A model generated the notes under the pieces. The model was not told the DNA's origin. It saw only the letters and a program-made list of their open reading frames with translations, and searched no databases. Shown in pieces: positions 4,608-58,567 of a DNA stretch of 64,000 nucleotides. The position numbers and the translations under genes were made by a program. The stretch lies in NCBI RefSeq assembly GCF_054482595.1, contig NZ_CM137008.1; one strand, 5' to 3'. Each line of letters begins with the position of its first letter. Position 1 is the stretch's first letter.

Positions 4608-5666
4608 GTGCGTGCCGATAAGTCATTAAGCCCGTTTGAAATCCGGGTATACCGCCATTACCGCATTGTGCATGGTACTCGGGTCGCGCTGGCATTCCTG
4701 CTCACTTTTCTCATTATCCGCCTGTTTACTATCCCGGAAAGCACCTGGCCGCTGGTCACCATGGTGGTGATTATGGGGCCAATCTCGTTCTGGGGGAACG
4801 TTGTCCCTCGTGCCTTCGAACGTATTGGCGGTACGGTGTTGGGTTCGATTTTAGGTCTTATCGCTCTGCAACTGGAGTTAATTTCGTTACCGCTGATGTT
4901 AGTCTGGTGCGCGGCGGCGATGTTTCTTTGCGGTTGGCTGGCGCTGGGCAAGAAACCGTATCAAGGATTATTGATTGGGGTGACGCTGGCAATTGTTGTG
5001 GGTTCCCCGACAGGTGAAATTGATACGGCGTTATGGCGAAGCGGCGATGTGATCCTCGGCTCTTTACTGGCAATGTTGTTTACCGGTATCTGGCCACAAC
5101 GCGCGTTCATCCACTGGCGCATTCAACTGGCGAAAAGTCTGACCGAGTATAATCGGGTCTATCAATCGGCATTCTCACCGAACTTACTCGAACGCCCACG
5201 TCTGGAAAGCCATCTACAAAAACTGCTGACCGATGCCGTGAAAATGCGTGGGCTGATTGCGCCCGCCAGCAAAGAAACCCGTATTCCAAAATCGATATAT
5301 GAAGGTATCCAGACCATTAATCGCAATCTGGTTTGTATGCTGGAGTTGCAAATCAATGCATACTGGGCCACGCGCCCCAGCCATTTCGTGTTATTGAACG
5401 CGCAAAAACTTCGTGATACCCAGCACATGATGCAGCAAATACTGCTGAGCCTTGTTCATGCGCTGTACGAAGGTAATCCGCAGCCGGTTTTTGCCAATAC
5501 GGAAAAATTGAACGATGCTGTGGAAGAGCTGCGTCAGTTGCTGAATAACCACCATGACCTGAAGGTTGTGGAAACACCAATCTATGGTTATGTGTGGCTG
5601 AACATGGAAACGGCACATCAGCTTGAGTTGCTATCGAGTCTGATTTGCCGGGCCTTGCGCAAATAA
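4608..5666 (+). CDS. yeeA: Inner membrane protein YeeA (FUSC-like)
   Basis: 352 aa, GTG start, N-terminal TM helices; synteny with sbmC and yeeX. Confidence 0.85.
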   Translation: MRADKSLSPFEIRVYRHYRIVHGTRVALAFLLTFLIIRLFTIPESTWPLVTMVVIMGPISFWGNVVPRAFERIGGTVLGSILGLIALQLELISLPLMLVWCAAAMFLCGWLALGKKPYQGLLIGVTLAIVVGSPTGEIDTALWRSGDVILGSLLAMLFTGIWPQRAFIHWRIQLAKSLTEYNRVYQSAFSPNLLERPRLESHLQKLLTDAVKMRGLIAPASKETRIPKSIYEGIQTINRNLVCMLELQINAYWATRPSHFVLLNAQKLRDTQHMMQQILLSLVHALYEGNPQPVFANTEKLNDAVEELRQLLNNHHDLKVVETPIYGYVWLNMETAHQLELLSSLICRALRK

Positions 5667-40222: not shown

Positions 40223-40932
40223 ATCATGTAAACAAACTCATCGAATTGCACCTCCTGTTTGTGGAGGTGCTTTTTTGTGCACAGCTCCCCAGCCAGGCTG
40301 GGGGTTCCGGAAAGCTTTCAGTTTTGAGCCAGTTATTAAAACCTCTTTTGATTTGTTAAAACACCTTGCGGTATGGCAACAGCAAGTGTCAAACAAAAAA
40401 TCAAAAGGGGGACCCAATGGGGAACGAAAAGAGCTAGCGCACCCCGATGGAACTGTAAATATCACATAGTTTTTGCGCCAAAATACCGAAGACAAGTGTT
40501 CTACAGAGAGAAGCGTAGAGCAACAGGCAGTATTTTGAGAAAGCTGTGTGAGTGGAAAAGCGTACGGATTCTTGAAGCTGAGTGCTGTGCAGATCATATC
40601 CATATGCTTGTGGAGATCCCGCCCAAAATGAGCGCATCCGGCTTTATGGGATATCTGAAAGGGAAAAGCAGTCTGATGCTTTACGAGCAGTTTGGTGATT
40701 TGAAATTCAAATACAGGAACAGGGAGTTCTGGTGCAGTGGGTACTAAGTCGATACGGTGGGTAAGAACACGGCGAAGATACAGGATTACATAAAGCACCA
40801 GCTTGAAGAGGATAAAATGGGAGAGCAGTTATCGATTCCCTACCTGGGCAGCGCGTTTATGGACCGTGAGTAACGAAGTTGGATGCAAATGTCAGATCGT
40901 GTGCGCCTGTTAGGGCGCGGCTGGTAAGAGAG
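40223..40932 (+). mobile_element. IS200 (IS200/IS605 family) inserted in dgoT
   Basis: Left-end hairpin cacctcctgtttgtggaggtg; TnpA with HxH motif; dgoT reading frame runs into IS sequence at about 40932. Confidence 0.7.
40373..40870 (+). pseudogene. tnpA: IS200 Y1 transposase TnpA, frameshifted
   Basis: Track ORF 124 aa (WNCKYHIVFAPKYRR...DHIHMLVEIPPK); canonical N-terminus and C-terminus lie in other frames. Confidence 0.65.
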
Positions 40933-41391
40933 CCTTATAGGCGCATGACCAGACGTATAAAAACCAACGGCAGAAGCGCGTTCATGTTCCGGGAACCAGC
41001 TGGTCACCATCCGGTTATTGGTCGGGAAAGCGGGCGCTTCGAAAATACTGGTTATCGCGCGCAGACCAATTAATGACATTAATCCCGTGGCAAAGCCCTG
41101 GAATAACGTCGCCACTGACCAGCCAAATATCGCAATAAAATAAGTCACGCGTGAACCTACGCGATCTAAAAACCAACCGCCGGGGATCTGACATAGCGTA
41201 TAAAGCCAGGCGAAGGCCGAAAATACATAGCCCATTTCCGCTTTGGTAATGCCGAACTCTTCCTGAATATGGGCGGCAGCCACGGCCAGGTTAGCGCGGT
41301 CAACATAACAAATGACCACCGTAATAAAGATCATCACCAGCGTCAGATAACGCCGACGCCCCGGCTTTGCTGCATTAACGGGAATATCCAT
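40933..41391 (-). pseudogene. dgoT: D-galactonate transporter DgoT, 5' fragment truncated by IS200
   Basis: [35 protein letters not shown]... MFS N-terminal region; 3' part of gene absent. Confidence 0.8.
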
Positions 41392-41510
41392 AGCGAGCTT
41401 TCTCCTGATTTTGGGCATAGCGAAGCCGCTCACCATGCCCTGTAATTTACAGAGGGTTATATTTTTGTATTGCTGTTTTAGTGCCCGATGAGGGGCTTAC
41501 GTGGCAGGAA

Positions 41511-43273: not shown

Positions 43274-44135
43274 GAGCGATGCTCCTTATACCAGCCTGAA
43301 ATGCCTTGTCGCCCGCCACCACCGCCACGTCGCAACCCATCGCCTGAAAGGCTTGCTGGTAGCGCGCGGTCAGCGATGTTCCGGCGACAAGGGTGATGGC
43401 GTGTTGATGGGTCACATAGTCGCGCATACTGGCAACCTCTGCGCCAATCAACAAACCAGAGAGAAATTCGCTGACCTGTTCGCGGGGAAGCGTTCCCAGC
43501 ACATGCGAGGCGCGAACTTCAAAAAGCTGCGGCAATATGGCGGGCGCATTAAGGCCACGCTCAAGGCCAGCCGCGAAGGCATCGGCAGAGTTTTCCTGCG
43601 GCGGCAAACCTGCGCCAATCAATGAGTGATTTAACAGTAAATGATGTAATTCACCGGTCATTACGGTGCGAAAATCGTTGATTTGCTGGCTATCGGCCTG
43701 CACCCATTTGCAATGGGTTCCGGGCATAACATAAAGAGAGGAAGGAGCCAGAGCACGCGCGCCGATCAATTGTGTTTCTTCGCCGCGCATCACATTGTGG
43801 TTATCGTCATGAGAAACGCATAATCCGGGAATAATCCAGATATTGTCGCCAACCGACGTTAATTGTTCGCCAATAGACGAAAAACGGACAGGAACAGATA
43901 AATACGGCGCAACTTTCCAGCCGACATTGCTGCCAACCATTCCTGCCATTACCACTGGCGTTTTCTCTTCACGCCAGTCGGTCGTGACTTCTGCTAACAC
44001 CGCAGCCGGAGATTTTCCGTTCAGGCGCGTGACGCCTGCTTCTGATTGCCTGCTCTCCAGGCAGTGGTCGCCCTGATAAAGCCAGGCGCGCAGATTGGTC
44101 GATCCCCAGTCAATTGCGATGTAGCGAGCTGTCAT
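43257..44135 (-). CDS. dgoK: 2-dehydro-3-deoxygalactonokinase
   Basis: 292 aa; operon context. Confidence 0.88.
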   Translation of the reverse strand: MTARYIAIDWGSTNLRAWLYQGDHCLESRQSEAGVTRLNGKSPAAVLAEVTTDWREEKTPVVMAGMVGSNVGWKVAPYLSVPVRFSSIGEQLTSVGDNIWIIPGLCVSHDDNHNVMRGEETQLIGARALAPSSLYVMPGTHCKWVQADSQQINDFRTVMTGELHHLLLNHSLIGAGLPPQENSADAFAAGLERGLNAPAILPQLFEVRASHVLGTLPREQVSEFLSGLLIGAEVASMRDYVTHQHAITLVAGTSLTARYQQAFQAMGCDVAVVAGDKAFQAGIRSIAHAVAN

Positions 44136-44821
44136 GTGATTTCCTTTAACCTTCGTGTCGAGCTGGCGATCATGGTAAGCGCCGCCTGCTCTGCCGCATC
44201 GCCGTCCTGATGCCGTATCGCATCGAACAGCGCCTTTTGTTCCTGGAGCGTTTGCGGCATGTTGGCCTCATCACCCATCCAGGTTCGTTCAAATACCGCC
44301 CGCTGCAGCGAACTGATCGCAATGCTAAGTTGCTGTAACACCGGATTATGTACCGACTGCAGCACCGCCTCGTGGTAGCGAATATCCGCTTCGTTAAACG
44401 CTTCGCGGTCCTGATTGTTGGCAATCATCTCGTTCAGCGCCGATTCAATCTGCGCCAGATCGCTGGAAGTCGCGCGCTCTGCTGCCCAACGGGCAATCGC
44501 CGGTTCCACCAGATTTCGCACTTCGCTCATGGCACTGATAAGTCGTGGGTCGTAGTCGTTTTCCAGCACCCATTGCAGTACGTCAGTGTCGAGGTAATTC
44601 CACTGGTTACGCGGTGCCACAAACGCGCCGCGATAACGTTTCATTTCAATCAGCCGCTTCGCCATCAGCGAACGGAACACCTCACGGATGATGTTGCGCG
44701 AGGTTGCGAACTCCTCACAGAGCTCCGCCTCAGCCGGAAGCGGCGAGCCTGGCACGTATTTGCCGTGAACGATCTGTTTACCCAGCGTAATGACGATGCG
44801 ATCGGTTTTATTGAGAGTCAT
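44132..44821 (-). CDS. dgoR: GntR-family regulator of galactonate operon
   Basis: 229 aa, N-terminal GntR HTH, FCD C-terminal domain. Confidence 0.88.
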   Translation of the reverse strand: MTLNKTDRIVITLGKQIVHGKYVPGSPLPAEAELCEEFATSRNIIREVFRSLMAKRLIEMKRYRGAFVAPRNQWNYLDTDVLQWVLENDYDPRLISAMSEVRNLVEPAIARWAAERATSSDLAQIESALNEMIANNQDREAFNEADIRYHEAVLQSVHNPVLQQLSIAISSLQRAVFERTWMGDEANMPQTLQEQKALFDAIRHQDGDAAEQAALTMIASSTRRLKEIT

Positions 44822-45173
44822 GGAGAGTCCTTGTGCTCTGTATGTTCTTCTCTACTTTACCCCGATCGATGCATAACGCGGCAACTTTGTAGTACCAGCG
44901 TGATAACGTTCGCGTTTGCTGTGTGCGTAATGTAGTACAAGCTTATATTGCTGTACTACAATTTAGATCGCAAAAAGAACAATGCATAAAAAAATGACAT
45001 GCGTCGGGCAGAAATGGAAAAGGGATATCAGGCGCTAAACAGGAGGGAAAGAAGAGTATGCTTTCAACGACTTAGTACTCAGACAGCAGCTTTTCCAGCG
45101 TCAGCGATGCGAATGAGGTAGTTCTGATTCATGACCGTTTTTATAATCCGGCTATGATATTTTTACCACATTG

Positions 45174-45506
45174 TCAGCGCGTTAAGGCGTGATGTTTTTG
45201 GCTGACGCTAGCCCAGCTTACTAAGGAGCATTGCCAGCTGCGGGCGGGTAAAGGATACCCCGCCGTCACGTACCGCAAGCCAGATAAATTGCCTTCCTCC
45301 TGGCGCTTGGTGAAAAGACACAGACCATCAGCCCAGAATATTTTAACAGTGTCACCCCGTCGGCCTCGGAAGATAAACAGGTGGCCGAAGAAGGGATTAT
45401 AATTCAGCACATGTTGACCCTGTTTTCCCAGTCCGTTGAAGGATTTACGCATATCAGCTACCCCGGCAATGAGGCAGATACGGGTACCGGATGGTAGTGA
45501 GATCAT
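45174..45506 (-). pseudogene. IS66-family TnpB (orf2) remnant
   Basis: MISLPSGTRICLIAGVADMRKSFNGL...HLFIFRGRRGDTVKIFWADGLCLFTKR matches IS66 orf2; C-terminus divergent/truncated. Confidence 0.65.
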
Positions 45507-45940
45507 CGTCTCCTCCTGGCTAACTCACGGATTAACACCTTGAGCAGCTCTGGTGAAGGATTTTCCAACACATCATGTTACTGAGACGGAACTCAACCTT
45601 ACAGGAACTGACACTGACTGTGTTATGGGGGGAAATGGATAAAGATGGAGCAATAGACATCATCGTATTTTTCTGTTCATTCGGCGTTATCTCAACAGGT
45701 AATAATTTAACGCCAGCGTCAGAAGTAGTCGTTACAGGAAGACGCCGCGAAACAACACAGGTTCAGGAGAATAAGGTAGAGCGTCTATAGTCCTGTTTCC
45801 TCCATCTAGGATGTCTGATGGAAATTCATCAGATACACTAAGGATCCCCATAAAGTATTTTATTGGCACACATCAGACATCCTTTAGGTATCCAGCAAGT
45901 TATTGAACTATTGCGTCGTCTCGTTCAAACTTCTCTTTTA

Positions 45941-47238
<1,298 letters not shown>

Positions 47239-47665
47239 GTATCCTCTGCGATGCCGAAGTCGGGGTTCTACCCTTGAGCTCTTCCTTAAGCATGCCTATT
47301 CTGGATAGCATTACACTGCTTTGAGGGTATCCAGCAACGATAAGAACTGACTAGGGGGTGGAGTTCACCTGCTTCACAATTAGTAAGTTTGCTGTTATTT
47401 AGCTTATTATATGGCTCATCACTGTGACGTTTTTTAGCTAGGAAATGCAATGAAAATTGTGCAGACTAGTCTCTCCGAATCTGTTACTCAGCATCTTGCC
47501 GAGCGCATCCTGTGCGGCGAACTGCCAGCAGGTAGCGTGCTGCCTGGCGAAAATGAACTGGCAACAGTTTCCAGGGGTGGTTGAACTCCGCCTTCGCAAA
47601 ATAAGAGCTTGGCGAAGGATATCGTTACTGTGGCGCAGTTCACGATTTTCACGCTCCAGCGTCTT

Positions 47666-47923
47666 TCAGACGCTGACGTTCAGCGGTGGTGAGTCCACCA
47701 TCACCGCCCCCGGTATCCCACTCATGCTGGTTGTACACCAGACACGCAGAGTCTCCGGTGTACAGCCAATCTTTGGGACGATGGAACAAATTGCTGCCCA
47801 TTGGGAGTCATATTCGCCCTGATTTTCCAGAACCATACGAACTGTCCGTTGACGGACTTCGGGGGAAAAACGAGTATTTTTAGCCATCCTGTTTACCTCT
47901 TTCTCAGGGAATTTAGTCTCCAA
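47666..47923 (-). pseudogene. IS629/IS1203-like OrfA remnant
   Basis: [50 protein letters not shown] matches IS629 OrfA N-terminus, then diverges. Confidence 0.6.
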
Positions 47924-48480
47924 GATTTCCGGGGCGCTTCACTTAGTTATTAATTAAATACCCCCCCGTTTCTTAAGTGGATTTGTTTATTCACATCTCG
48001 TGAATATTAGAACATTATATGATTGTACATCCATATAGAGTTCCGAGGCAGAACGAGAGTGAATCATTGATTGATGCCAACCATAAGGTAATTATCTGGA
48101 AGAGGCCATAGTCTTCCGGAAGATATGAAAATAATATTTTCTTTTGTTCTGCGTCGTGTTATTTTTTCTTTGTCCGTTGGCAAGACGGATAGATAAATAT
48201 TAAAACAAACAGACAAGATTCAGCATAGTTTACCTTCCGTCCCCTGCATCCTGGGGATTTTTTTTACTCAGTGATGGTAATCATACAGCCACAGATAACG
48301 GGAGCGATGTGTATTTTTCGGATCCACAACAGGACTGTTTTGAACAGAGGTATATTTTCCAGCAGTGACTGTCACTGTGGTAGCAAAATAAATATCCTCC
48401 GGCATAGCCGGAGGTTTTTCAAATGGGTGATGCTGCCAACTTACTGATTTAGTGTATGATGGTGTTTTTGAGGTGCTCCA

Positions 48481-48756
48481 GTGGCTTCTGTTTCTATCAG
48501 CTGTCCCTCCTGTTCAGCTACTGACGGGGTGGTGCGTAACGGCAAAAGCACTGCCGGACATCAGCGCTATCTCTGCTCTCACTGCCGTAAAACATGGCAA
48601 CTGCAGTTCACTTACACCGCTTCTCAACCCGGTACGCACCAGAAAATCATTGATATGGCCATGAATGGCGTTGGATGCCGGGCAACCGCCCGCATTATGG
48701 GCGTTGGCCTCAACACGATTTTCCGCCATTTAAAAAACTCAGGCCGCAGTCGGTAA
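48481..48756 (+). CDS. insA: IS1 InsA
   Basis: 91 aa, recognised InsA sequence. Confidence 0.9.
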
Positions 48757-49178
48757 CCTCGCGCATACAGCCGGGCAGTGACGTCATCGTCTGCGCGGAA
48801 ATGGACGAACAGTGGGGATACGTCGGGGCTAAATCGCGCCAGCGCTGGCTGTTTTACGCGTATGACAGGCTCCGGAAGACGGTTGTTGCGCACGTATTCG
48901 GTGAACGCACTATGGCGACGCTGGGGCGTCTTATGAGCCTGCTGTCACCCTTTGACGTGGTGATATGGATGACGGATGGCTGGCCGCTGTATGAATCCCG
49001 CCTGAAGGGAAAGCTGCACGTAATCAGCAAGCGATATACGCAGCGAATTGAGCGGCATAACCTGAATCTGAGGCAGCACCTGGCACGGCTGGGACGGAAG
49101 TCGCTGTCGTTCTCAAAATCGGTGGAGCTGCATGACAAAGTCATCGGGCATTATCTGAACATAAAACACTATCAATAA
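48675..49178 (+). CDS. insB: IS1 InsB (normally expressed as InsAB' by frameshift)
   Basis: 167 aa, recognised InsB sequence. Confidence 0.85.
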
Positions 49179-49549
49179 GTTGGAGTCATTACCCGCTGCA
49201 GGTATAAAATGAAGGTTTTCTGATTTTTCAGGGGCTATTGCAGGCCCCTTTTTACATCATAAATAATGATATCACTTAATGTATTACAAAATGTTATAAC
49301 CAGGGATATTCCCAGAATTTATAATTTCCTCCTGTACTTTTCACCATGACACAGAAACGCTATACATCGCGGTATTTCTGCAGGGTACGGGCTGGATATG
49401 GGTAAGCGTCTCGGTAGAGAGACGGTTAATGAGTCTAAGAATTACTCTTCTTTTAGCTGTGAAATAAGGAGGCGTTAAGAATATTTATTAAATAAAGGCC
49501 CGCTTTTAAAATGGGCCTTAAGGGCAAGACGATGTATAAAATATTTTAT

Positions 49550-50581
49550 CTATTGTTCATAAATTGATACGATAGCTTTACCATCGTTGCCGATAGTTCC
49601 ACGATACATCCCTTCTGTATTGAAACTCATAGTATAATTACCATTCTTATCTAGAACAATGACACCACCACTACCATTAATGTTTTTAACTTCATCAAGC
49701 GCATTTTGAGCTGCTTCTTTCAATGGTGTATTTTTATATTTCACCTGAGCAGCAATATTGTATGCAGTTGAAGTTCTAATAAACATTTCTCCAGTACCTG
49801 TAGCAGAAACAGCAACGGTATTATTATCGGCATAGGTTCCTGCTCCAATTATTGGCGAGTCACCTACGCGTCCGTAACGTTTATTTGTCATACCTCCTGT
49901 TGATGTTCCAGCTGCCAGATTACCATCTTTGTCCAACGCGACTGCTCCAACAGTTCCATATTTATAGTCGTAGTTCTTTGGGGGGAGTAAAAGAGATGCT
50001 GATTTACCATTATGATCAAGGGTTATTTTTTCGTCTTTTAAAGCGTTCTGTAGCTGTTGCCAACGGAAATCAGTTTTGAAATATGCTGGCTCAACCATAA
50101 CTAAGCCTTGCTCTTTTGCAAATAGTTCCGCACCATTAGAGATCATTAATACATGAGGGCTTTTAGTCATAACTGCATAAGCAGCGTTTATAGGGTTTTT
50201 TATGGTCGTCACTCCTGCAACGGCTCCGGCCATTTTGGTTTTTCCATCCATAATTGCAGCATCAAGTTCGTTTTTGCCATCATGAGTAAAGACAGCGCCT
50301 TTTCCAGCATTGAAGAGGGGAGAGTCCTCCATAACATTAATTGCACGCTGAACAGCATCAAGGCTACTTCCTCCACTATTAAGCACAGCATACCCAGCAT
50401 TTAGTGCATCTGTTAACTTTTCTCTGTATTGTTTTTCTTGTTCAGGTGTAATAGTATCTTTTGTTATGGTGCCAGCTCCACCATGAATTACAAGGCGTAT
50501 TGGCGTTTGAGATTCAGCGTGAGCATATCCTATACACAATGCGAAGGCTGCCATTACTGTTATACCTTTTATTTTATTCAT
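49550..50581 (-). CDS. Periplasmic isoaspartyl peptidase / L-asparaginase (Ntn-hydrolase family)
   Basis: Signal peptide MNKIKGITVMAAFALCIGYAHA; Ntn-hydrolase motifs (GTVGAVALD); track ORF has 10 extra N-terminal codons. Confidence 0.8.
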   Translation of the reverse strand: MNKIKGITVMAAFALCIGYAHAESQTPIRLVIHGGAGTITKDTITPEQEKQYREKLTDALNAGYAVLNSGGSSLDAVQRAINVMEDSPLFNAGKGAVFTHDGKNELDAAIMDGKTKMAGAVAGVTTIKNPINAAYAVMTKSPHVLMISNGAELFAKEQGLVMVEPAYFKTDFRWQQLQNALKDEKITLDHNGKSASLLLPPKNYDYKYGTVGAVALDKDGNLAAGTSTGGMTNKRYGRVGDSPIIGAGTYADNNTVAVSATGTGEMFIRTSTAYNIAAQVKYKNTPLKEAAQNALDEVKNINGSGGVIVLDKNGNYTMSFNTEGMYRGTIGNDGKAIVSIYEQ

Positions 50582-50699
50582 AACTCCTCCTTTTGTCTGA
50601 AGTTTATACAATATAAATATTTAAACTTTTTCCATTATGTTTATTTGACTTCTATCAAAAAAAATTATGCTAATTCGATTTTGCAAAATTTAATTGCAC

Positions 50700-52005
50700 G
50701 CAAATAATATGCACATATTTTTTAGTGTAATGAGTGACTTTTATGGATAGGTTCCCGCTGACCTCTATCACCATACTTCCCCCCGCTTTCAGTAGGACAT
50801 CCGTGTCTGACTTTATATCGAGATTTCATGTGGAAGAGATAAATGCCGGACCTTGAGAAAGAAATATAACTCCCCAGTCTCGTTGAACCCTCTTGTTGAT
50901 CCACTTTTCAAGTACGTAACGATCCAAGTTCCGCCTGCCGTCCAAGGCGTTTGGTGAAGCAGCACGGTCCGTCACTGTCAGCCCACAACTTCCGCTCCCA
51001 CGGGCGCGCCACCGCGCTCTTCTTCTCATTCACCTTCTGTTTCAGTTTGCTCTCCACGAACGCCCTGATGTCCTTCAGCAGATGGTCGCCCGCTTTCCGG
51101 CTGCTTACGTAGATGTTGCAGTCGTCTGCGTAGCGGCAGAAGCTGTGTCCACGATGGCGCTTAACTGCTGCGCTATCGCCTGCTGGATAAGCCTGTCCAC
51201 CACCGTCGGGATGCCTAAGGTTCTCACGCCGCCATCCGGCTTCGGGATATCCATCCGGCGTATTGCCCGCGGCTGGTAGTTTCCGTCAATCAATACCTGC
51301 CATACGCTGCGCCAGTTCTTCTTCAGCCACGGTTTCAACTCCGCCACACCTTTGTTTTCCACCACGCGCTGATAAGCCAGCATCAGGTTTTCTCTCGTTA
51401 TCACCGCTTCCATCGTCAGCGGCACTTCCGCTTTCGTTTGCCCACCCGCCGCCGTGCTGATTTCAGCGCCATCATGCAGCCCTGACGGATACTGTCCGTC
51501 TCCTCTGCCGCTGGCCGCAGTTGCCTGCGCGTGTGCTTCATTAATCATCATCGGGTTCGGATGTCCTAATCACAGTTAATCATGTTCGGCCCTTCATGCT
51601 GCCGGTTTTGCAGCACTACTACGGCGTCGGCTGACTTCTGCCGCCCCATCCCGGCGCCTCACGGCACCGGTAGCACACTGGCAGGGCGACAGATCTCCCG
51701 GGGTAATTCACGCGACTTTCCTGCTTATGCCTGTCGGCTTTACGTCACAGCGTTCCGTGTGAGTATCGGGCTTTGGTGATTTGTGCCACCTTACCCTGCT
51801 GCGCCGCCTTAACCGCTTCCTGTTCGTCAGGCCAGCATTTTGCATCCGGCTTCCTTCAGATTTCACCTCGCGATGAACACCCTTGCCTTCCGCTAACACT
51901 TCCCCTCACCGGGTGTGTGGAGGACTTTCACCTCTTAGTCGTTCTTCAGCCACCACAGTTGAAGAACAGCGCCAGTCACGGCGCTACGCGCCATGCCCGG
52001 CGCAC
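50700..52005 (-). mobile_element. Group II intron fragment (5' domains plus truncated intron-encoded protein)
   Basis: Minus-strand GTGCGCC 5' consensus at about 52005; RT-like ORF 51105..51551; 3' part missing. Confidence 0.5.
51105..51551 (-). pseudogene. Group II intron reverse transcriptase/maturase, N-terminal fragment
   Basis: ...TRENLMLAYQRVVENKGVA...RRMDIPKPDGGVRTLGIPTVVDRLIQQA typical RT domains 0-2; truncated. Confidence 0.65.
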
Positions 52006-52196
52006 ATATGCAACGAGCGCCGATGTAAACGGCACCCGTAATATTTTAGCTGCAGGGCACGCCGTACTTGCCTGTAAAGAGATGGTGCAGTCAGGCCTTT
52101 TGTTTAAGCAGGAGCCCACCGAAATGATTCCGGCAATAGCCTGATTAGCAGGAATCCACATCCTTCTGGGCGTGGAGGATGACAATCTAAAACAAG

Positions 52197-53558
52197 TTAA
52201 TAAAAAATACCGATAATCGCAGAGTGAAAAACAAAACCAACTATCAGGGGTAAAGCAGTGCGTTTTACCACTTCGAAGGGAGTTATATTTGCTCCACTGG
52301 AAACCGCTATAACCACGCCAGATACGGGAGACATCGCACGCCCCATATGGGAAGCCTGCTGCATAGGCAGGATCATCGATATGGCATTCACGCCCATGCT
52401 GGCAGCGATTTGTGGTATCAGTTCAACAAAAGCCAGAAATGGCGCATTGCCCGATCCCATAATGACAGCTGCAGCCAGTGTAACCAGAGCAAAAACGATG
52501 CCCATCGCAAAAGGGGGTAACCCAACGTGCTCTGCCATCAAAATTAATTGATCTATCGCGCCAATGCTTTTAATCCCATGAGCAAACACACCTGCGGCCA
52601 CCAGTAAGCCCACCACGCCGGTAAATGCTGTCCCCATTCCTTTCAGGAAATGGGTAAACCCGTCACATACAGCTTTCAGATCACATTTACGGACCCATTC
52701 GATCAGCATGCAAATTGCCATTGAGATAAGAACAATCGTAATGATATTGAGATTAATTCCGGTGACAAAAATCTCCGATGAGCCAACGGCCATCAGGATC
52801 GGTAGCATAGGTAGCAGAGCATAATAAGCCGGCGTACTGCCTGCTTTTATGACCGTTGTCGTACCAATTTCATGAGGTAATGTTCCAGCTTTACGATCAC
52901 AGTGTTTCTGCCAGAAAAAGTGGCTGATACCGACAATCAGAACAGTCGCCAGAGCAGCAGGCCCCTGATGATAGACAACATACTCCACCACATCCATATT
53001 TACCGCTTCAGAGCCTCGTATGGCGTCAATGGCTGTCGGTGTGTACGCCACACCAAGAGAGGTGGCAATTACCCCTGCGGCAGACGCTGCTGACAGCCCG
53101 AGTCCGAGCATAATAGGAAACATGGTTCCCATCAGTAAAACAGCAAGTCCGGTAGCTGAGGGGATAGCCAGTTGAAGAAGACTGGCGAAAAGATAAGAGA
53201 AAAAAAGCAGAACATAGGGGGAACGTAATGTCCGTAATGGCCGGGTTACCACACGGACAACCGCTTCATTCGCACCGATATGGTCCATGTAATGCGCAAA
53301 TCCCATCAGGGTCATAATCATCAGACCGAGATCAGCCGCACGGGTACTGAATAAATTGCGCATGACTTCGAAAGGATCAAGAAAACTAATTCCTGTACCG
53401 GACACGCCCTTCGGTAACACTGTGCCCCAACCGGTAAACCAGGTACAAACCATCAGCGCAAGCCCGGCAATAAAAAGCACGGGTTCTGCACGATATCCTT
53501 TCAGGATTAAGCGAGCAACTATCACGATAACAAGAAGCGCGATAACAACTTTAATCAT
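52197..53558 (-). CDS. DcuC-family anaerobic C4-dicarboxylate transporter
   Basis: 453 aa polytopic membrane protein; DcuC-like C-terminal motif [25 protein letters not shown]. Confidence 0.8.
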
Positions 53559-54811
53559 GACTCACGATTCCCTGTGGTGAACCCATTGAATGTCTCCTGA
53601 ATGATGGCAATAACCACATCACTTGCCGCCCGAAGTGAACGGACTGGAAGATATTCATAGATAGAATGGAAATTATGTGCGCCGGTAAAAATGTTCGGGC
53701 AGGGTAATCCTTTTTGTGAAAGAACAGCGCCATCATATCCTCCACGCATCGCCACCGGTGTCGGAGTAATACCACATCGTTGGTAAGCTCGCAGTGCAAT
53801 GTCGATGGGATAATGCCCCTCTCCCTGCAGACTGTTAAAGACATTGGCGTACCGATCGCTCAGTTGGCAGATCACGCTTCCTTCTCCCCATAATGCACAA
53901 GCACTTTCTGCAAGCTGGCGTACAAATGTCTTCCGGGCGTGATATCCTTCCTCGCTGAAATCTCGTATATCCAGTTTTAGTACAGTTCTGGCACTGTTTC
54001 CCTGTAACTGTTTCACCCAATAATAGCCTTCGCGTCCTTCTGTATATTCAGGCGCTTCTCCTCCTGGCAACATCGAAATGAATTTGTGAGCCATCAAAAG
54101 AGAGTTCTTAAGCTTGCCTTTCGCTGACATAGGGTGTGCAGACTGGCCGGTAAAGATAATTTCTGCATCACCCGCATTCCAGTTTTCGTAAACAAATTCT
54201 CCAATACCGCAGCAATCCAGAGTGTAGCCAAAATCTGCGCCAAACTCTGAAACATCGAAGGCTTTGGCCCCCCGTAACCCCTGCTCTTCATCTGGCACAA
54301 ACCCAACTTTAACTTCTCCATGCCTGATTTCAGGATGAGAAATCAGAAATTGAAGTGCGTTCATTATGGCCGCCAGCGCCGCTTTATCATCGGCCCCCAG
54401 AAGGCTGGTACCATCTGTCACTATAAGATCATCGCCAATATAATTTTTGAGCTCCGGGAATTCACTCTCACGCAAATAAATATTCAGTTCAGGGTTCAGA
54501 CAGAGATCGCCCCCATTATAAGGTAATCGTTGCGCTTTTGTATCGGCTGTCTGTTCGGCACTGGTGTCCAGATGTCCAAAAAAGGAAACGACGGGGATTG
54601 TTTCGTCAGTATTTGCAGGGAGTGTTGCTGTTACGATAGCATTCTCTCTGAGAATAATATCCTCCATACCCAATGCTTCAAGTTCACTCACCAACAATTT
54701 CGCAAGTTTCATCTGACCAGGAGATGAAGGCATGATCCCTTTTGCGCCGTTTTCTCGTGAGGTAGTGGTATTAATTTTTGTATAATTGATAAAGCGTTCG
54801 ACAATATCCAT
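53555..54811 (-). CDS. Peptidase T-like tripeptidase (M20 family)
   Basis: 418 aa; M20 motifs (HLDT, GADDKAA, DEE); 4-nt overlap with dcuC start. Confidence 0.8.
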   Translation of the reverse strand: MDIVERFINYTKINTTTSRENGAKGIMPSSPGQMKLAKLLVSELEALGMEDIILRENAIVTATLPANTDETIPVVSFFGHLDTSAEQTADTKAQRLPYNGGDLCLNPELNIYLRESEFPELKNYIGDDLIVTDGTSLLGADDKAALAAIMNALQFLISHPEIRHGEVKVGFVPDEEQGLRGAKAFDVSEFGADFGYTLDCCGIGEFVYENWNAGDAEIIFTGQSAHPMSAKGKLKNSLLMAHKFISMLPGGEAPEYTEGREGYYWVKQLQGNSARTVLKLDIRDFSEEGYHARKTFVRQLAESACALWGEGSVICQLSDRYANVFNSLQGEGHYPIDIALRAYQRCGITPTPVAMRGGYDGAVLSQKGLPCPNIFTGAHNFHSIYEYLPVRSLRAASDVVIAIIQETFNGFTTGNRES

Positions 54812-55676
54812 TGAGATGCCTTCTTCAACATTTTCCAGATTTTAGGGACAGTTTATTAACACCTTCTGACTCTGAAGAACGTGAATTTATGCTATGTTCA
54901 GGCTGTCATTTTTCCAAGAGAGAAATGATAATTATGAAGAGCCTTTGCATGATTGAACATAAAATACAGACTCCATTACAGTATGGCGTTTTTTTAGCTT
55001 GTGATGATTAATGCCGTTACACCCTGAAAGACGATTTAGTGATCAAATCATCTAAAAATAATTAATCATAATGGATGTTAAAATCCATGATCTAACTCAA
55101 ATTACAAACCATTAAAGCGGAAGATGGAGTGGAAACATTACGTTTTCTACTCTATTCCAAGATTTATCAATTAGAAGTGCAATAACATTCCCGTGTAAAA
55201 ACTCTTATCTTAATAAGAATCACCATGAGTGACTATATCTACAACGCTGGAAAACCTAGCAGAGATATAGGTTTTCTATGGTGGTAAACAGGTTGTTTTT
55301 CTGAAGGATGTGACCAAACCGGGATGCTATTATAAAATAGTTCTACTTAATCATGATTTAAAAAATCAGCATTAATAATAAGTTTGATTGCGGAATTGTT
55401 TTTTTTGATCTTAATCATATTAGTGCAGCGTTATCTGCATATTTCGGGCTTTTACTGGTTATATTTGATTGCTAAATAACCCACTAATTTTAACGTTATA
55501 AAAATGTGCTTGATATCACGTTTTAAGTTTATCTTATTAGTTTAAATATATTCCATTAGATGGTAATGGTTATGTCATCTGGTGATTATAAGTATTCATT
55601 CTTAATGTTGGATAAGTGTTTTATGAAAACAATTTGTTATTGTCACATTGTTTTCGAAAAATGGAGTTAGAAAATT

Positions 55677-57077
55677 ATGTCTCGTATTGAAAGCGATTTC
55701 CTTGGTGAGCGTGAAGTTCCGGATGATTGCTATTATGGTGTTCAGACACTTCGTGGTGAGGATAATTTCCATATTACTGAAATGCCAATGAGTCAGGAGC
55801 CCTTCTTCATCATTGCCTTCGGTTATGTGAAAAAAGCAGCTGCGATGGCTAATAAGGAGTTAGGTACAATTCCTGCTGATGTTGCGGATGCTTTAATCTG
55901 GGCTTGCGACCAATTAATTGATGGTAAGTACCGGGAACAGTTTGTGACCGACTGGCTTCAGGGGGGAGCCGGAACGTCAACCAATATGAACTGCAATGAA
56001 GTGATTTGTAATCTTGCTGCAGAAAAACTTGGTAGCGTTAAAGGGGATTACAAACGCGTTTCGCCAAACGACCATGCTAATTTTGGTCAGTCCACCAATG
56101 ATACATATCCGACAGCATTACATCTGGCATTGCTGCTGCGAAGCAATGTATTGCTTGAAGCTGTTGAACACCTCGTAGGAGCATTCTACAAAAAGGCTGA
56201 CGAGTTCAGCACAGTGCTCAAGATGGGACGTACTCACCTGCAGGATGCAGTGCCAATGACTCTCGGCCAGGAGTTCCATGGCTGGGGTTTTACAATTAAT
56301 GATGAAATTCGGGTCATCCGTAATGCACAGGAACACCTGCGGGTTGTAAACCTTGGTGCTACTGCGATTGGTACCTGTGTTACCGCTCACCCGGATTATC
56401 CCGCTTTAGCCGTGAAATATCTGGCCCAGATCACAGGCATTAATTTCAGGAACAGTGAAGATCTCATCGCTGCCACAAGCGACTGTGGTGCATATGTTGC
56501 ACTCAGTTCGGCCATGAAGAGCCTCTCTGTGAAGCTTACCAAGGTTTGTAATGACATTCGACTGCTTGCTTCAGGCCCCCGTTGCGGCCTGGCTGAAATT
56601 AACCTGCCTCAATTGCAACCGGGTTCTTCCATTATGCCTGGTAAGGTTAACCCCGTTATCCCGGAAGTAACAAACCAGTCTTGCTTTCTGGTTCAGGGGC
56701 TGGACACCACAGTGATGCTGGCGGCATCTGCTGGTCAGCTTGAGCTTAACGTTATGGAGCCGGTCATCACCTTTGCGCTGTTCACCTCACTCAAGGTGAT
56801 GACGAATGCCTGTAACACACTCCGAACTAAATGCATTGATGGCATTACAGCTAATTCCGATCGAACTGCAGAGATGGTAATGCATTCCTGCGGTATTGTG
56901 ACTCTCCTGAAGCCACATCTGGGATATAAGGTGTGTTCTGAAATGGCGCACGAAGCATACCATACAGGCAAATCCCTCCATCAGATAGTGGTTGTCGAAC
57001 GTAAGCTACTCACACAGGAAGAATGGGAGAAGACATTCAATCTGGATAATCTGATTGCTCCGAAGTTCGAACAATAA
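55677..57077 (+). CDS. Aspartate ammonia-lyase family protein (copy 2)
   Basis: 466 aa, differs from copy 1 at 3 residues; GSSIMPGKVNP signature. Confidence 0.85.
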   Translation: MSRIESDFLGEREVPDDCYYGVQTLRGEDNFHITEMPMSQEPFFIIAFGYVKKAAAMANKELGTIPADVADALIWACDQLIDGKYREQFVTDWLQGGAGTSTNMNCNEVICNLAAEKLGSVKGDYKRVSPNDHANFGQSTNDTYPTALHLALLLRSNVLLEAVEHLVGAFYKKADEFSTVLKMGRTHLQDAVPMTLGQEFHGWGFTINDEIRVIRNAQEHLRVVNLGATAIGTCVTAHPDYPALAVKYLAQITGINFRNSEDLIAATSDCGAYVALSSAMKSLSVKLTKVCNDIRLLASGPRCGLAEINLPQLQPGSSIMPGKVNPVIPEVTNQSCFLVQGLDTTVMLAASAGQLELNVMEPVITFALFTSLKVMTNACNTLRTKCIDGITANSDRTAEMVMHSCGIVTLLKPHLGYKVCSEMAHEAYHTGKSLHQIVVVERKLLTQEEWEKTFNLDNLIAPKFEQ

Positions 57078-57232
57078 TTGTTCAGAATCTGTAAGAAGGG
57101 AGATCCGGCAGGGGATGGCGCGAATGAAAACGTATCAGTCCTCTGCCCGGATGTTTGTAAAAATACATTCCATAAGGCCTTTGTTGAGAGGAGCTCAGGG
57201 GTAAAGGTGTCTCACTAATTCGGGAGAGAATC

Positions 57233-58567
57233 ATGGATATTATCACTGTTCTTCAGATAGTGGTTCTGCTGGGGGCAATCTTTTTGGGTGTCCGTATGGG
57301 CGGGATTGGTATTGGTTATGCCGGTGGCATTGGGGTATTGATTCTGGGGCTTTGTCTGGATATGAAGCCTGGTAATATCCCCTGGGATGTGATTCTAATT
57401 ATTGCATCGGTAATTTCTGCTATTTCGGCCATGCAACTGGCGGGAGGACTGGACTATCTCGTTCAGGTCGCTGAACGAATTCTTCGTAAAAATCCAAAAT
57501 ATATTAATTACCTGGCTCCGGTTGTCACTTATGTGCTGACAATCTTTGCCGGTACGGGACATACTGCATTTTCAATGATCCCTGTAATTGTCGAAGTTTC
57601 CAAAGAACAAAACATTAAGCCCTCATGTCCGCTCTCAATTGCGGTTGTATCATCTCAAATTGCAATTACAGCATCACCTGTATCGGCTGCCGTTATCTAT
57701 ATGTCTGGCGTACTGGAAGGCTTTGGGTGGAGTTATCCAGTATTGCTTGGGATATGGTTGTTTACCACATTCGTTGGTTGCATGCTTACCGCATTTATAA
57801 TCAGTCTGATTTCTGACATGAAATTAGACAATGATCCGGTTTACCGGGAGCGTCTTTCCAAAGGACTCGTAAGCGCGCCAGTAAAGAGTGTTAACAAACA
57901 GCTCAAGCCTTATGCCAGACGATCTGTCGCAATTTTCCTTATTGGCGTCATCCTGGTGGTCCTTTACGCTTCGGCCATTAGCCCGACGCTGGGTCTGATT
58001 GATAACGTTGTTGTTAGTCGTGATGCGGCTATTATGAGTCTCATGCTACTGGTTGGCGGATTCATTACCCTTTTCTGTAAAGCAGATATAAACAAGATTG
58101 CGGACTCCTCTGTGTTCAAGTCAGGCATGGTTGCCTGTATCTGTGTACTGGGTGTGGCATGGTTGGGGGACACTTTTGTATCTGGTCATTCAGGAGAAAT
58201 TAAGGAGCTTGCCAGAACTACTGTATCCCAGTATCCAGCTCTTCTGGCTGTGGTATTTTTCCTGGCTGCGATGCTTCTGTATTCACAGGCTGCAACTGCC
58301 AAAGCTATCACTCCGGCTATTGTGACTGCATTGGGTATTACTGCAGCGAATCCGGATGACAGTTACATGCTGGTAGCTTCTTTTGCTGCTGTGTCTGCTT
58401 TATTTGTGTTACCAACTTACCCAACCCTTCTGGGGGCGGTGCAAATGGATGACACAGGAACGACCCGTATTGGTAAGTATGTGTTCAACCATGCTTTCTT
58501 TATTCCGGGTGTACTGGCTATTGCTTTCTCAGTGCTTCTGGGATTTCTTGTGGTGAGTATGTTCTGA
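57233..58567 (+). CDS. Anaerobic C4-dicarboxylate transporter, DcuA/DcuB family (divergent from 36398..37696)
   Basis: 444 aa polytopic membrane protein, DcuA-like. Confidence 0.8.
   Translation: MDIITVLQIVVLLGAIFLGVRMGGIGIGYAGGIGVLILGLCLDMKPGNIPWDVILIIASVISAISAMQLAGGLDYLVQVAERILRKNPKYINYLAPVVTYVLTIFAGTGHTAFSMIPVIVEVSKEQNIKPSCPLSIAVVSSQIAITASPVSAAVIYMSGVLEGFGWSYPVLLGIWLFTTFVGCMLTAFIISLISDMKLDNDPVYRERLSKGLVSAPVKSVNKQLKPYARRSVAIFLIGVILVVLYASAISPTLGLIDNVVVSRDAAIMSLMLLVGGFITLFCKADINKIADSSVFKSGMVACICVLGVAWLGDTFVSGHSGEIKELARTTVSQYPALLAVVFFLAAMLLYSQAATAKAITPAIVTALGITAANPDDSYMLVASFAAVSALFVLPTYPTLLGAVQMDDTGTTRIGKYVFNHAFFIPGVLAIAFSVLLGFLVVSMF

Follow-up and report, generated by a model that had tools for sequence, protein, structure and literature searches.

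The spacer between the dcuC and isoaspartyl peptidase genes contains an inactive remnant of a class C (IIC) group II intron of the E.c.I6 family, located at positions 52005–50987 on the minus strand of the window, which is the whole 64-kb stretch of DNA that was analysed. We hold this identification with very high confidence, and no evidence contradicting it was met. The remnant extends from the 5′ end of the intron to a truncation point defined by alignments to full-length copies, and it retains 1019 nt of an element of ~1.85 kb. Its nearest kin are E. coli group II introns: E.c.I6 of CFT073 was aligned with it by blastn at 95.8% identity over 832 nt (51984–51177) and at 94.6% identity over 168 nt (51154–50987). 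Both values lie above the threshold by which introns are named E.c.I6, namely >90% nucleotide identity to the reference intron (PMC3522654). The element is a fragment of a member of the group II intron family and not a functional member. It is an ordinary one, and it was already catalogued in 2012 (Leclercq & Cordaux, PLoS One, PMC3522654). A sequence-only reading of the window had proposed a truncated group II intron between these two genes at 50700–52005. The Rfam matches, the reverse transcriptase (RT) fragments, and the precise 5′ end all bear out this proposal. Its interval holds for the intron at 52005–50987, but the lower ~290 bases are debris of IS66 and of a P1-like phage gene.

The ribozyme part, comprising domains I–III and the 5′ arm of domain IV, occupies 52005–51580 (minus strand), the limit at 51580 being approximate. 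In an Rfam scan of the whole 64-kb window, RF02001 (group-II-D1D4-3) matched 51877–51708 (minus strand) with 140.2 bits (E = 1.3e-29), and RF01998 (group-II-D1D4-1) matched 51673–51589 (minus strand) with 71.9 bits (E = 1.3e-11). The gathering scores are 32 and 35, respectively, and both matches span the full model length. A covariance-model search for intron domains, which the sequence-only reading had named as a check, thus detected domains I–IV (5′ part), with domains V and VI absent. The same reading had taken a GTGCGCC motif as the intron 5′ end. The motif lies at 52005–51999 (minus strand), and the conserved group II 5′ end GUGYG is present at the element boundary as GTGCG starting at 52005. 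The relatives used for alignment were those on plasmid pMADE-3 (L002), the EC13 chromosome (L003), CFT073 (L007), and plasmid pPK5074-91kb (L008). The G of GTGCG is exactly where homology with three independent full-length copies sets in, so the motif was correctly recognized, and upstream of it the four copies have unrelated flanks. Therefore, the mobile unit truly begins at 52005.

Just after GTGCGCC (51985–52005, minus strand), the remnant carries a 19-nt insertion relative to the CFT073 E.c.I6 reference. It forms a small hairpin (GCGCC-GGGCAT-GGCGC) and, as the alignments with L002 and L003 show, is present in the EC13 and plasmid copies as well as in the window copy. This insertion defines a subfamily and travels with the intron. 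The G+C content of the remnant is 55–59%, compared with 40–48% in the flanking genes.

The protein-coding part is broken into two pieces. A 148-residue ORF at 51551–51105 (minus strand) encodes residues 1 to ~135 of the intron-encoded RT, followed by a 13-residue out-of-frame tail. It matched the NCBIfam model TIGR04416 (group II RT/maturase) with E = 2.4e-22 and 79.5 bits over profile positions 2–93 of 353, which confirms the earlier view that this minus-strand ORF encodes the N-terminal part of a group II intron RT. Alignment to an E. coli intron protein, the intact 448-residue relative encoded by L008, gave 84% identity over residues 1–131, in accordance with the comparison that the sequence-only reading had suggested. 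The peptide encoded by the ORF is devoid of every catalytic RT motif. That reading had limited the protein to its first ~150 residues. The N-terminal RT is indeed present, but a second piece corresponding to residues 243–297 of the intact protein is also retained, in another frame, at 51153–50987 (minus strand). This 167-nt fragment matched TIGR04416 with E = 1.4e-9 and 37.6 bits over profile positions 207–257, and it is 86% identical to the intact intron-encoded protein (IEP). Both RT fragments score below the TIGR04416 cut-off, which is 300 bits. A YADD motif lies at 51132–51121 (minus strand), out of frame with the 148-residue ORF. Instead of a complete RT domain with motifs 0–7, the remnant has two partial TIGR04416 matches in two frames, which map to residues 1–129 and 243–297 of the intact relative. 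In RefSeq, both pieces carry the label "maturase"; one is given as an intact CDS and the other as a pseudogene.

Alignments to the full-length relatives located two internal deletions. A 24-nt deletion between 51350 and 51349 (minus strand) has removed the RT0 motif. The second, of 346 nt, has its junction at 51154/51153 (minus strand), as was also evident from overlapping blast segments against L008. It takes out residues ~130–242 of the 448-residue relative, corresponding to the central RT domain. The 148-residue ORF ends 13 codons past the junction because this deletion shifts the frame. Direct repeats are present at both internal deletion junctions; those bracketing the 346-nt deletion are imperfect, with the sequence CGTGGAyAmAGCTTCT.

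The lost 3′ portion amounts to ~40% of the intron and includes the end of the RT, the maturase domain, the 3′ part of domain IV, and domains V and VI. RF00029, which represents domains V/VI, had no match at gathering score in the 64-kb window and none at E ≤ 1 in 44000–58000, whereas it does match the full-length relatives of the remnant. A pattern search for the domain V sequence of the relatives found no occurrence in the window at ≤3 mismatches, and the 3′ half of the full-length copies had no blastn match there. No fragment of the remnant matched the GIIM (maturase) domain of Pfam. The sequence-only reading had stated that the 3′ domains and the rest of the protein are missing. This is right for domains V/VI and the maturase, but the two internal deletions and the kept YADD segment had escaped it. 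Judged from its sequence, the remnant should be incapable of splicing, of making an active RT/maturase, and of moving. Splicing would fail for lack of the catalytic domain V and the branch-point domain VI. Reverse transcription and mobility are likewise not expected because domains V/VI, the maturase, RT0, and the central RT are lost and YADD is out of frame.

The segment at 40278–40581 of the window, which was the one additional blastn hit of the full-length copies, was considered as a displaced half of the intron and rejected, since it corresponds to the IS200 that adjoins a plasmid copy of the intron. On the plus strand, it is an IS200 left end, with a full-length match to Rfam STnc490 at 40284–40407 (122 bits). 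An MFS transporter fragment ORF (40840–41436, minus strand) adjoins this left end.

The 5′ exon of the intron is itself a remnant of a mobile element. An IS609-like (IS200/IS605 family) remnant occupies 52006–52188 (plus strand) and consists of the last 45 codons of tnpB/insQ (52007–52144) and the right end, as defined by RefSeq and by alignments. The tail peptide is 78% identical to residues 358–402 of BL21 InsQ (E = 9e-22), and the right-end homology of ~44 bp runs to ~52188, nine bases from the dcuC stop codon. Homology to tnpB DNA begins at the base directly next to the intron junction. The intron is inserted antisense in the 3′ end of tnpB. Neither tnpA nor the rest of tnpB is present, and RefSeq labels the piece "TnpB, partial". 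A Pfam search with the tnpB tail, which is very short, gave no match.

A stem-loop in this 5′ exon, ACGGGTGCCG-TTTACAT-CGGCGCTCGT, has a 10-bp stem, is followed by TGCATAT, and ends 7 nt before the intron. Its folding energy is only modestly better than that of shuffled sequences (z = −2.1; 7 of 200 shuffles fold as well). The 5′ exons of the other copies also contain stem-loops: a terminator stem-loop in CFT073 (z = −9.8), a stem-loop in EC13 (z = −2.8), and an 11-bp perfect hairpin followed by TTATTGT in pMADE-3 (z = −5.3). In all four independently inserted copies, the stem-loop ends close upstream of the insertion point, and T(A/G)T, the ending shared by the four 5′ exons, would fit a short IBS1. 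Class C introns are described as inserting after terminator-like stem-loops (PMC1702495). The window copy, lying shortly downstream of a stem-loop, has the insertion pattern of this class.

The protein of the relatives points in the same direction. The intact 448-residue protein of L008 contains RVT_1 (96–302) and GIIM (318–396) domains of Pfam and no endonuclease domain; the GIIM domain falls past the truncation point of the remnant. Its best matches among solved structures are the GsI-IIC RT (2e-124), followed by 7UIM and 5HHL/5HHJ (the Eubacterium rectale and Roseburia intestinalis IIC RTs). The matches to LtrA (IIA) and to the intron maturase/RT of 6ME0 have E-values of 4.5e-39 and 3.9e-34, respectively. 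E.c.I6 was assigned to class C in the published survey (PMC3522654, Table S2). The probable membership of the remnant in class C rests on this catalogue, the protein similarity, and the insertion-site pattern. Among the characterized IIC introns are B.h.I1 of Bacillus halodurans, GsI-IIC, and the introns encoding the E. rectale and R. intestinalis IIC RTs. They have in common with the E.c.I6 relatives a compact intron, an RT without an endonuclease domain, and insertion after terminator-like stem-loops (PMC1702495). The characterized introns are complete and active, whereas in the window copy the catalytic core is missing, as is most of the protein.

The same locus in E. coli SMS-3-5 carries the catalogued fragment E.c.I6-tr1. 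The two loci are 99.93% identical over window positions 49194–55180 and share the gene order pepT, dcuC, tnpB tail, intron fragment, pseudogene, and isoaspartyl peptidase. E.c.I6-tr1 was described as a class C fragment of 976 bp with an internal deletion and a degraded region (PMC3522654, Tables S2 and S3), and its catalogued 168-bp piece corresponds to window positions 51153–50987. The published extent, defined by BLAST, misses the first 21 nt of the element, since the copy has the 19-nt insertion relative to the E.c.I6 reference. It also omits bases around the 24-nt deletion; the extent determined here is 1019 nt. The window differs from SMS-3-5 by an IS1 past the peptidase gene, and the similarity ends at 49194.

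Full-length E.c.I6 (1807 nt) is found in the selC island of CFT073, ED1a, S88, and APEC O1. The CFT073 copy resembles the remnant in its GTGCG start, its domain I–IV RNA, its RT sequence, and its insertion after a hairpin. Unlike the remnant, it keeps domains V/VI and the maturase region, occupies another insertion site, and is without the 19-nt 5′ insertion. Its ORF is also disrupted (PMC3522654), and our alignment revealed a deletion of ~85 nt in this copy. The plasmid copies (pMADE-3, pPK5074-91kb, and >150 E. coli plasmids) are 92.5% identical to the remnant and share the 19-nt 5′ insertion. Their insertion point is 7 nt past a perfect hairpin that lies downstream of bcsB, and in contrast to the remnant they are full length (~1875 nt) with domains V/VI present. 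In the pPK5074 copy, the ORF (L008 754–2100, 448 residues) is open but carries a separate in-frame deletion, of 42 nt, across the RT0 region. The intron ORFs of CFT073, EC13, and pMADE-3 are damaged by a deletion, a frameshift, or a stop codon. Thus every copy examined has some damage in its RT ORF, and that of L008 is the only open full-length IEP seen. The family may have largely died out in E. coli. On the plasmids, the bcsB terminator hairpin is followed by the IIC intron and an IS200 placed back to back. The last base of the intron (…CTACTCGAT) directly abuts the IS200 left end, which contains Rfam STnc490 and tnpA (L002 ~4877–5010; L008 ~2176–2482).

Downstream of the truncation point, the spacer continues with debris of other elements. 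Intron homology ends at 50987 with the sequence ...GGAGCGGAAGTT, and the intron is joined at a GTT microhomology to an internal scrap of ~45 bp from an IS66-family tnpB (50986–50944, minus strand), which was recognized by DNA similarity. Next to it lies a 213-bp, frameshifted 3′ fragment of a baseplate gene of a P1-like phage-plasmid (50943–50731, minus strand; 87% identity), labelled in RefSeq as "hypothetical protein, frameshifted, missing N-terminus". Pfam and NCBIfam searches with the reading frames of 50612–50986 gave no matches, and it was DNA similarity that identified these pieces. The spacer ends with the AT-rich leader of the peptidase gene. Over its 1.6 kb between dcuC and the peptidase gene, it is a stack of four unrelated mobile-element scraps. 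It is flanked upstream by dcuC (53558–52197, minus strand; Pfam DcuC, E = 3.8e-90) and downstream by the isoaspartyl peptidase/L-asparaginase family gene (50611–49550, minus strand; Pfam Asparaginase_2, E = 3.1e-118).

The segment comprising dcuC, the remnant, and the peptidase gene occurs in 218 of 5426 complete E. coli genomes with ~100% identity. A junction of dcuC and the peptidase gene free of the intron or of the debris was found in none of the 5426 genomes; in one island-bearing genome the peptidase side has been lost. Near-identity is uniform across the flanks and the remnant; therefore, recent common descent or transfer of the island, and not selection on the remnant, accounts for its distribution. 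Some E.c.I6-like sequence is present in 1237 of the 5426 genomes. It is a common intron family on E. coli plasmids, and it also occurs on plasmids of Pseudomonas, Klebsiella, Providencia, and others. In a survey of 90 Enterobacteriales genomes, 111 intron fragments (55 distinct) were found (PMC3522654), and truncated introns inside other mobile elements are therefore the norm.

We considered whether the remnant could be one half of a split functional intron, with domains V/VI and the maturase supplied in trans. Domains I–III look complete, and about a fifth of the E. coli genomes contain other E.c.I6-like copies. However, there is no 3′ exon context, and the break lies inside the RT ORF at the IS66 scrap rather than at a structured break in domain IV. 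Domains V/VI are nowhere in the window, and for SMS-3-5 the survey counts only E.c.I6-tr1, one other fragment, and one E.c.I4 copy (PMC3522654). Moreover, the host is a dead tnpB tail read antisense; therefore, nothing would need splicing. A split intron is, in our judgement, extremely improbable. The idea that the RT-like ORF derives from a non-intron RT, such as a retron or a DRT defence RT, draws on weak secondary NCBIfam matches to retron and Drt models (E = 0.016–0.12). TIGR04416 scores many orders of magnitude better with both fragments, ribozyme domains lie directly upstream of the RT ORF, and the DNA is 95% identical to that of a catalogued intron, in the full-length copies of which domains V/VI are present. 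We rejected a retron or defence RT on account of the TIGR04416 match, the adjoining ribozyme domains, and the identity to E.c.I6 DNA, and its probability is close to nil.

Co-option of the remnant, in which the domain I–III RNA or the 148-residue peptide would influence expression of the downstream isoaspartyl peptidase, was also considered. In its favour, every part shares its strand with the flanking genes, a search of 50400–52400 showed no terminator-like site on the minus strand, none of the 218 E. coli genomes with the island is without the remnant, and RefSeq lists the 148-residue ORF as an intact CDS. Against this, the ~100% conservation extends over the entire 4 kb including the flanks, which indicates common descent or transfer and not selection. 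Such a patchwork of four unrelated mobile-element scraps is what neutral decay typically leaves, a promoter-like site (50731–50704, minus strand) is located directly upstream of the peptidase gene, and the peptide has no catalytic RT motif. We therefore regard co-option as very unlikely. A related speculation is that the patch is not neutral, in that intact domain I–III RNA, co-transcribed between dcuC and the peptidase gene, would serve as a structured spacer modulating the expression or stability of the downstream message. Another is that hairpin-seeking IIC introns repeatedly hit the structured 3′ ends of tnpB genes and so inactivate IS605-family elements. These too seem very unlikely. An inactive remnant of a class C intron is the reading that we retain.

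We infer the order of events and a mechanism of retro-insertion from the observed identity, boundaries, deletions, missing domains, flanking remnants, and distribution of the remnant across genomes. In the most likely history, an IS609-like element of the IS200/IS605 family landed just downstream of dcuC. An E.c.I6-type intron would then have reverse-spliced into the antisense strand of the tnpB 3′ end, 7 nt past the DNA stem-loop. Illegitimate deletions between short direct repeats would subsequently have taken 24 nt, with RT0, and 346 nt, with the central RT, the latter causing the frameshift. At least one further rearrangement presumably removed the 3′ ~40% of the intron together with the remaining insertion sequence, and the stump would thereby have been joined to the 45-bp IS66 scrap and the P1-like phage gene fragment. 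The product was probably inherited passively with the island of pepT, dcuC, and the isoaspartyl peptidase gene.

The remnant has little importance beyond correct annotation. The 148-residue "maturase" CDS of RefSeq is a frameshifted stump rather than a gene, and the neighbouring "hypothetical protein" pseudogene is the P1-like baseplate fragment. The locus follows the textbook pattern of Enterobacteriales, in which introns arrive on or within mobile elements, undergo deletions, and survive as fragments (PMC3522654). The remnant can also be used as a strain marker for the ~4% of complete E. coli genomes (218 of 5426) with the island of pepT, dcuC, and isoaspartyl peptidase.

The flanking genes belong to an accessory cluster at 49550–58567, which contains the isoaspartyl peptidase, DcuC, an M20 peptidase annotated as PepT, a lyase, and a second transporter. 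The lyase is an aspartate ammonia-lyase-like Lyase_1 protein (55677–57077, plus strand), and the second transporter is of the DcuA/DcuB type (57233–58567, plus strand). This composition is suggestive of the catabolism of aspartyl peptides or aspartate. Just past the 3′ end of the peptidase gene lies an IS1 with InsA and InsB ORFs (48481–49178, plus strand); a DUF5339 gene is found in its place in the SMS-3-5 and 64EVA loci. Further away, a full-length, 150-bit match to the Rfam sRNA isrC (46049–46171, plus strand) is located directly upstream of an IS3-family transposase ORF with rve and HTH_21 domains (46184–47230, plus strand). A sub-threshold match to ALIL, the IS3 frameshift pseudoknot, was observed at 47551–47607 (minus strand). 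The isrC "sRNA" match may simply be part of the IS3-family element.
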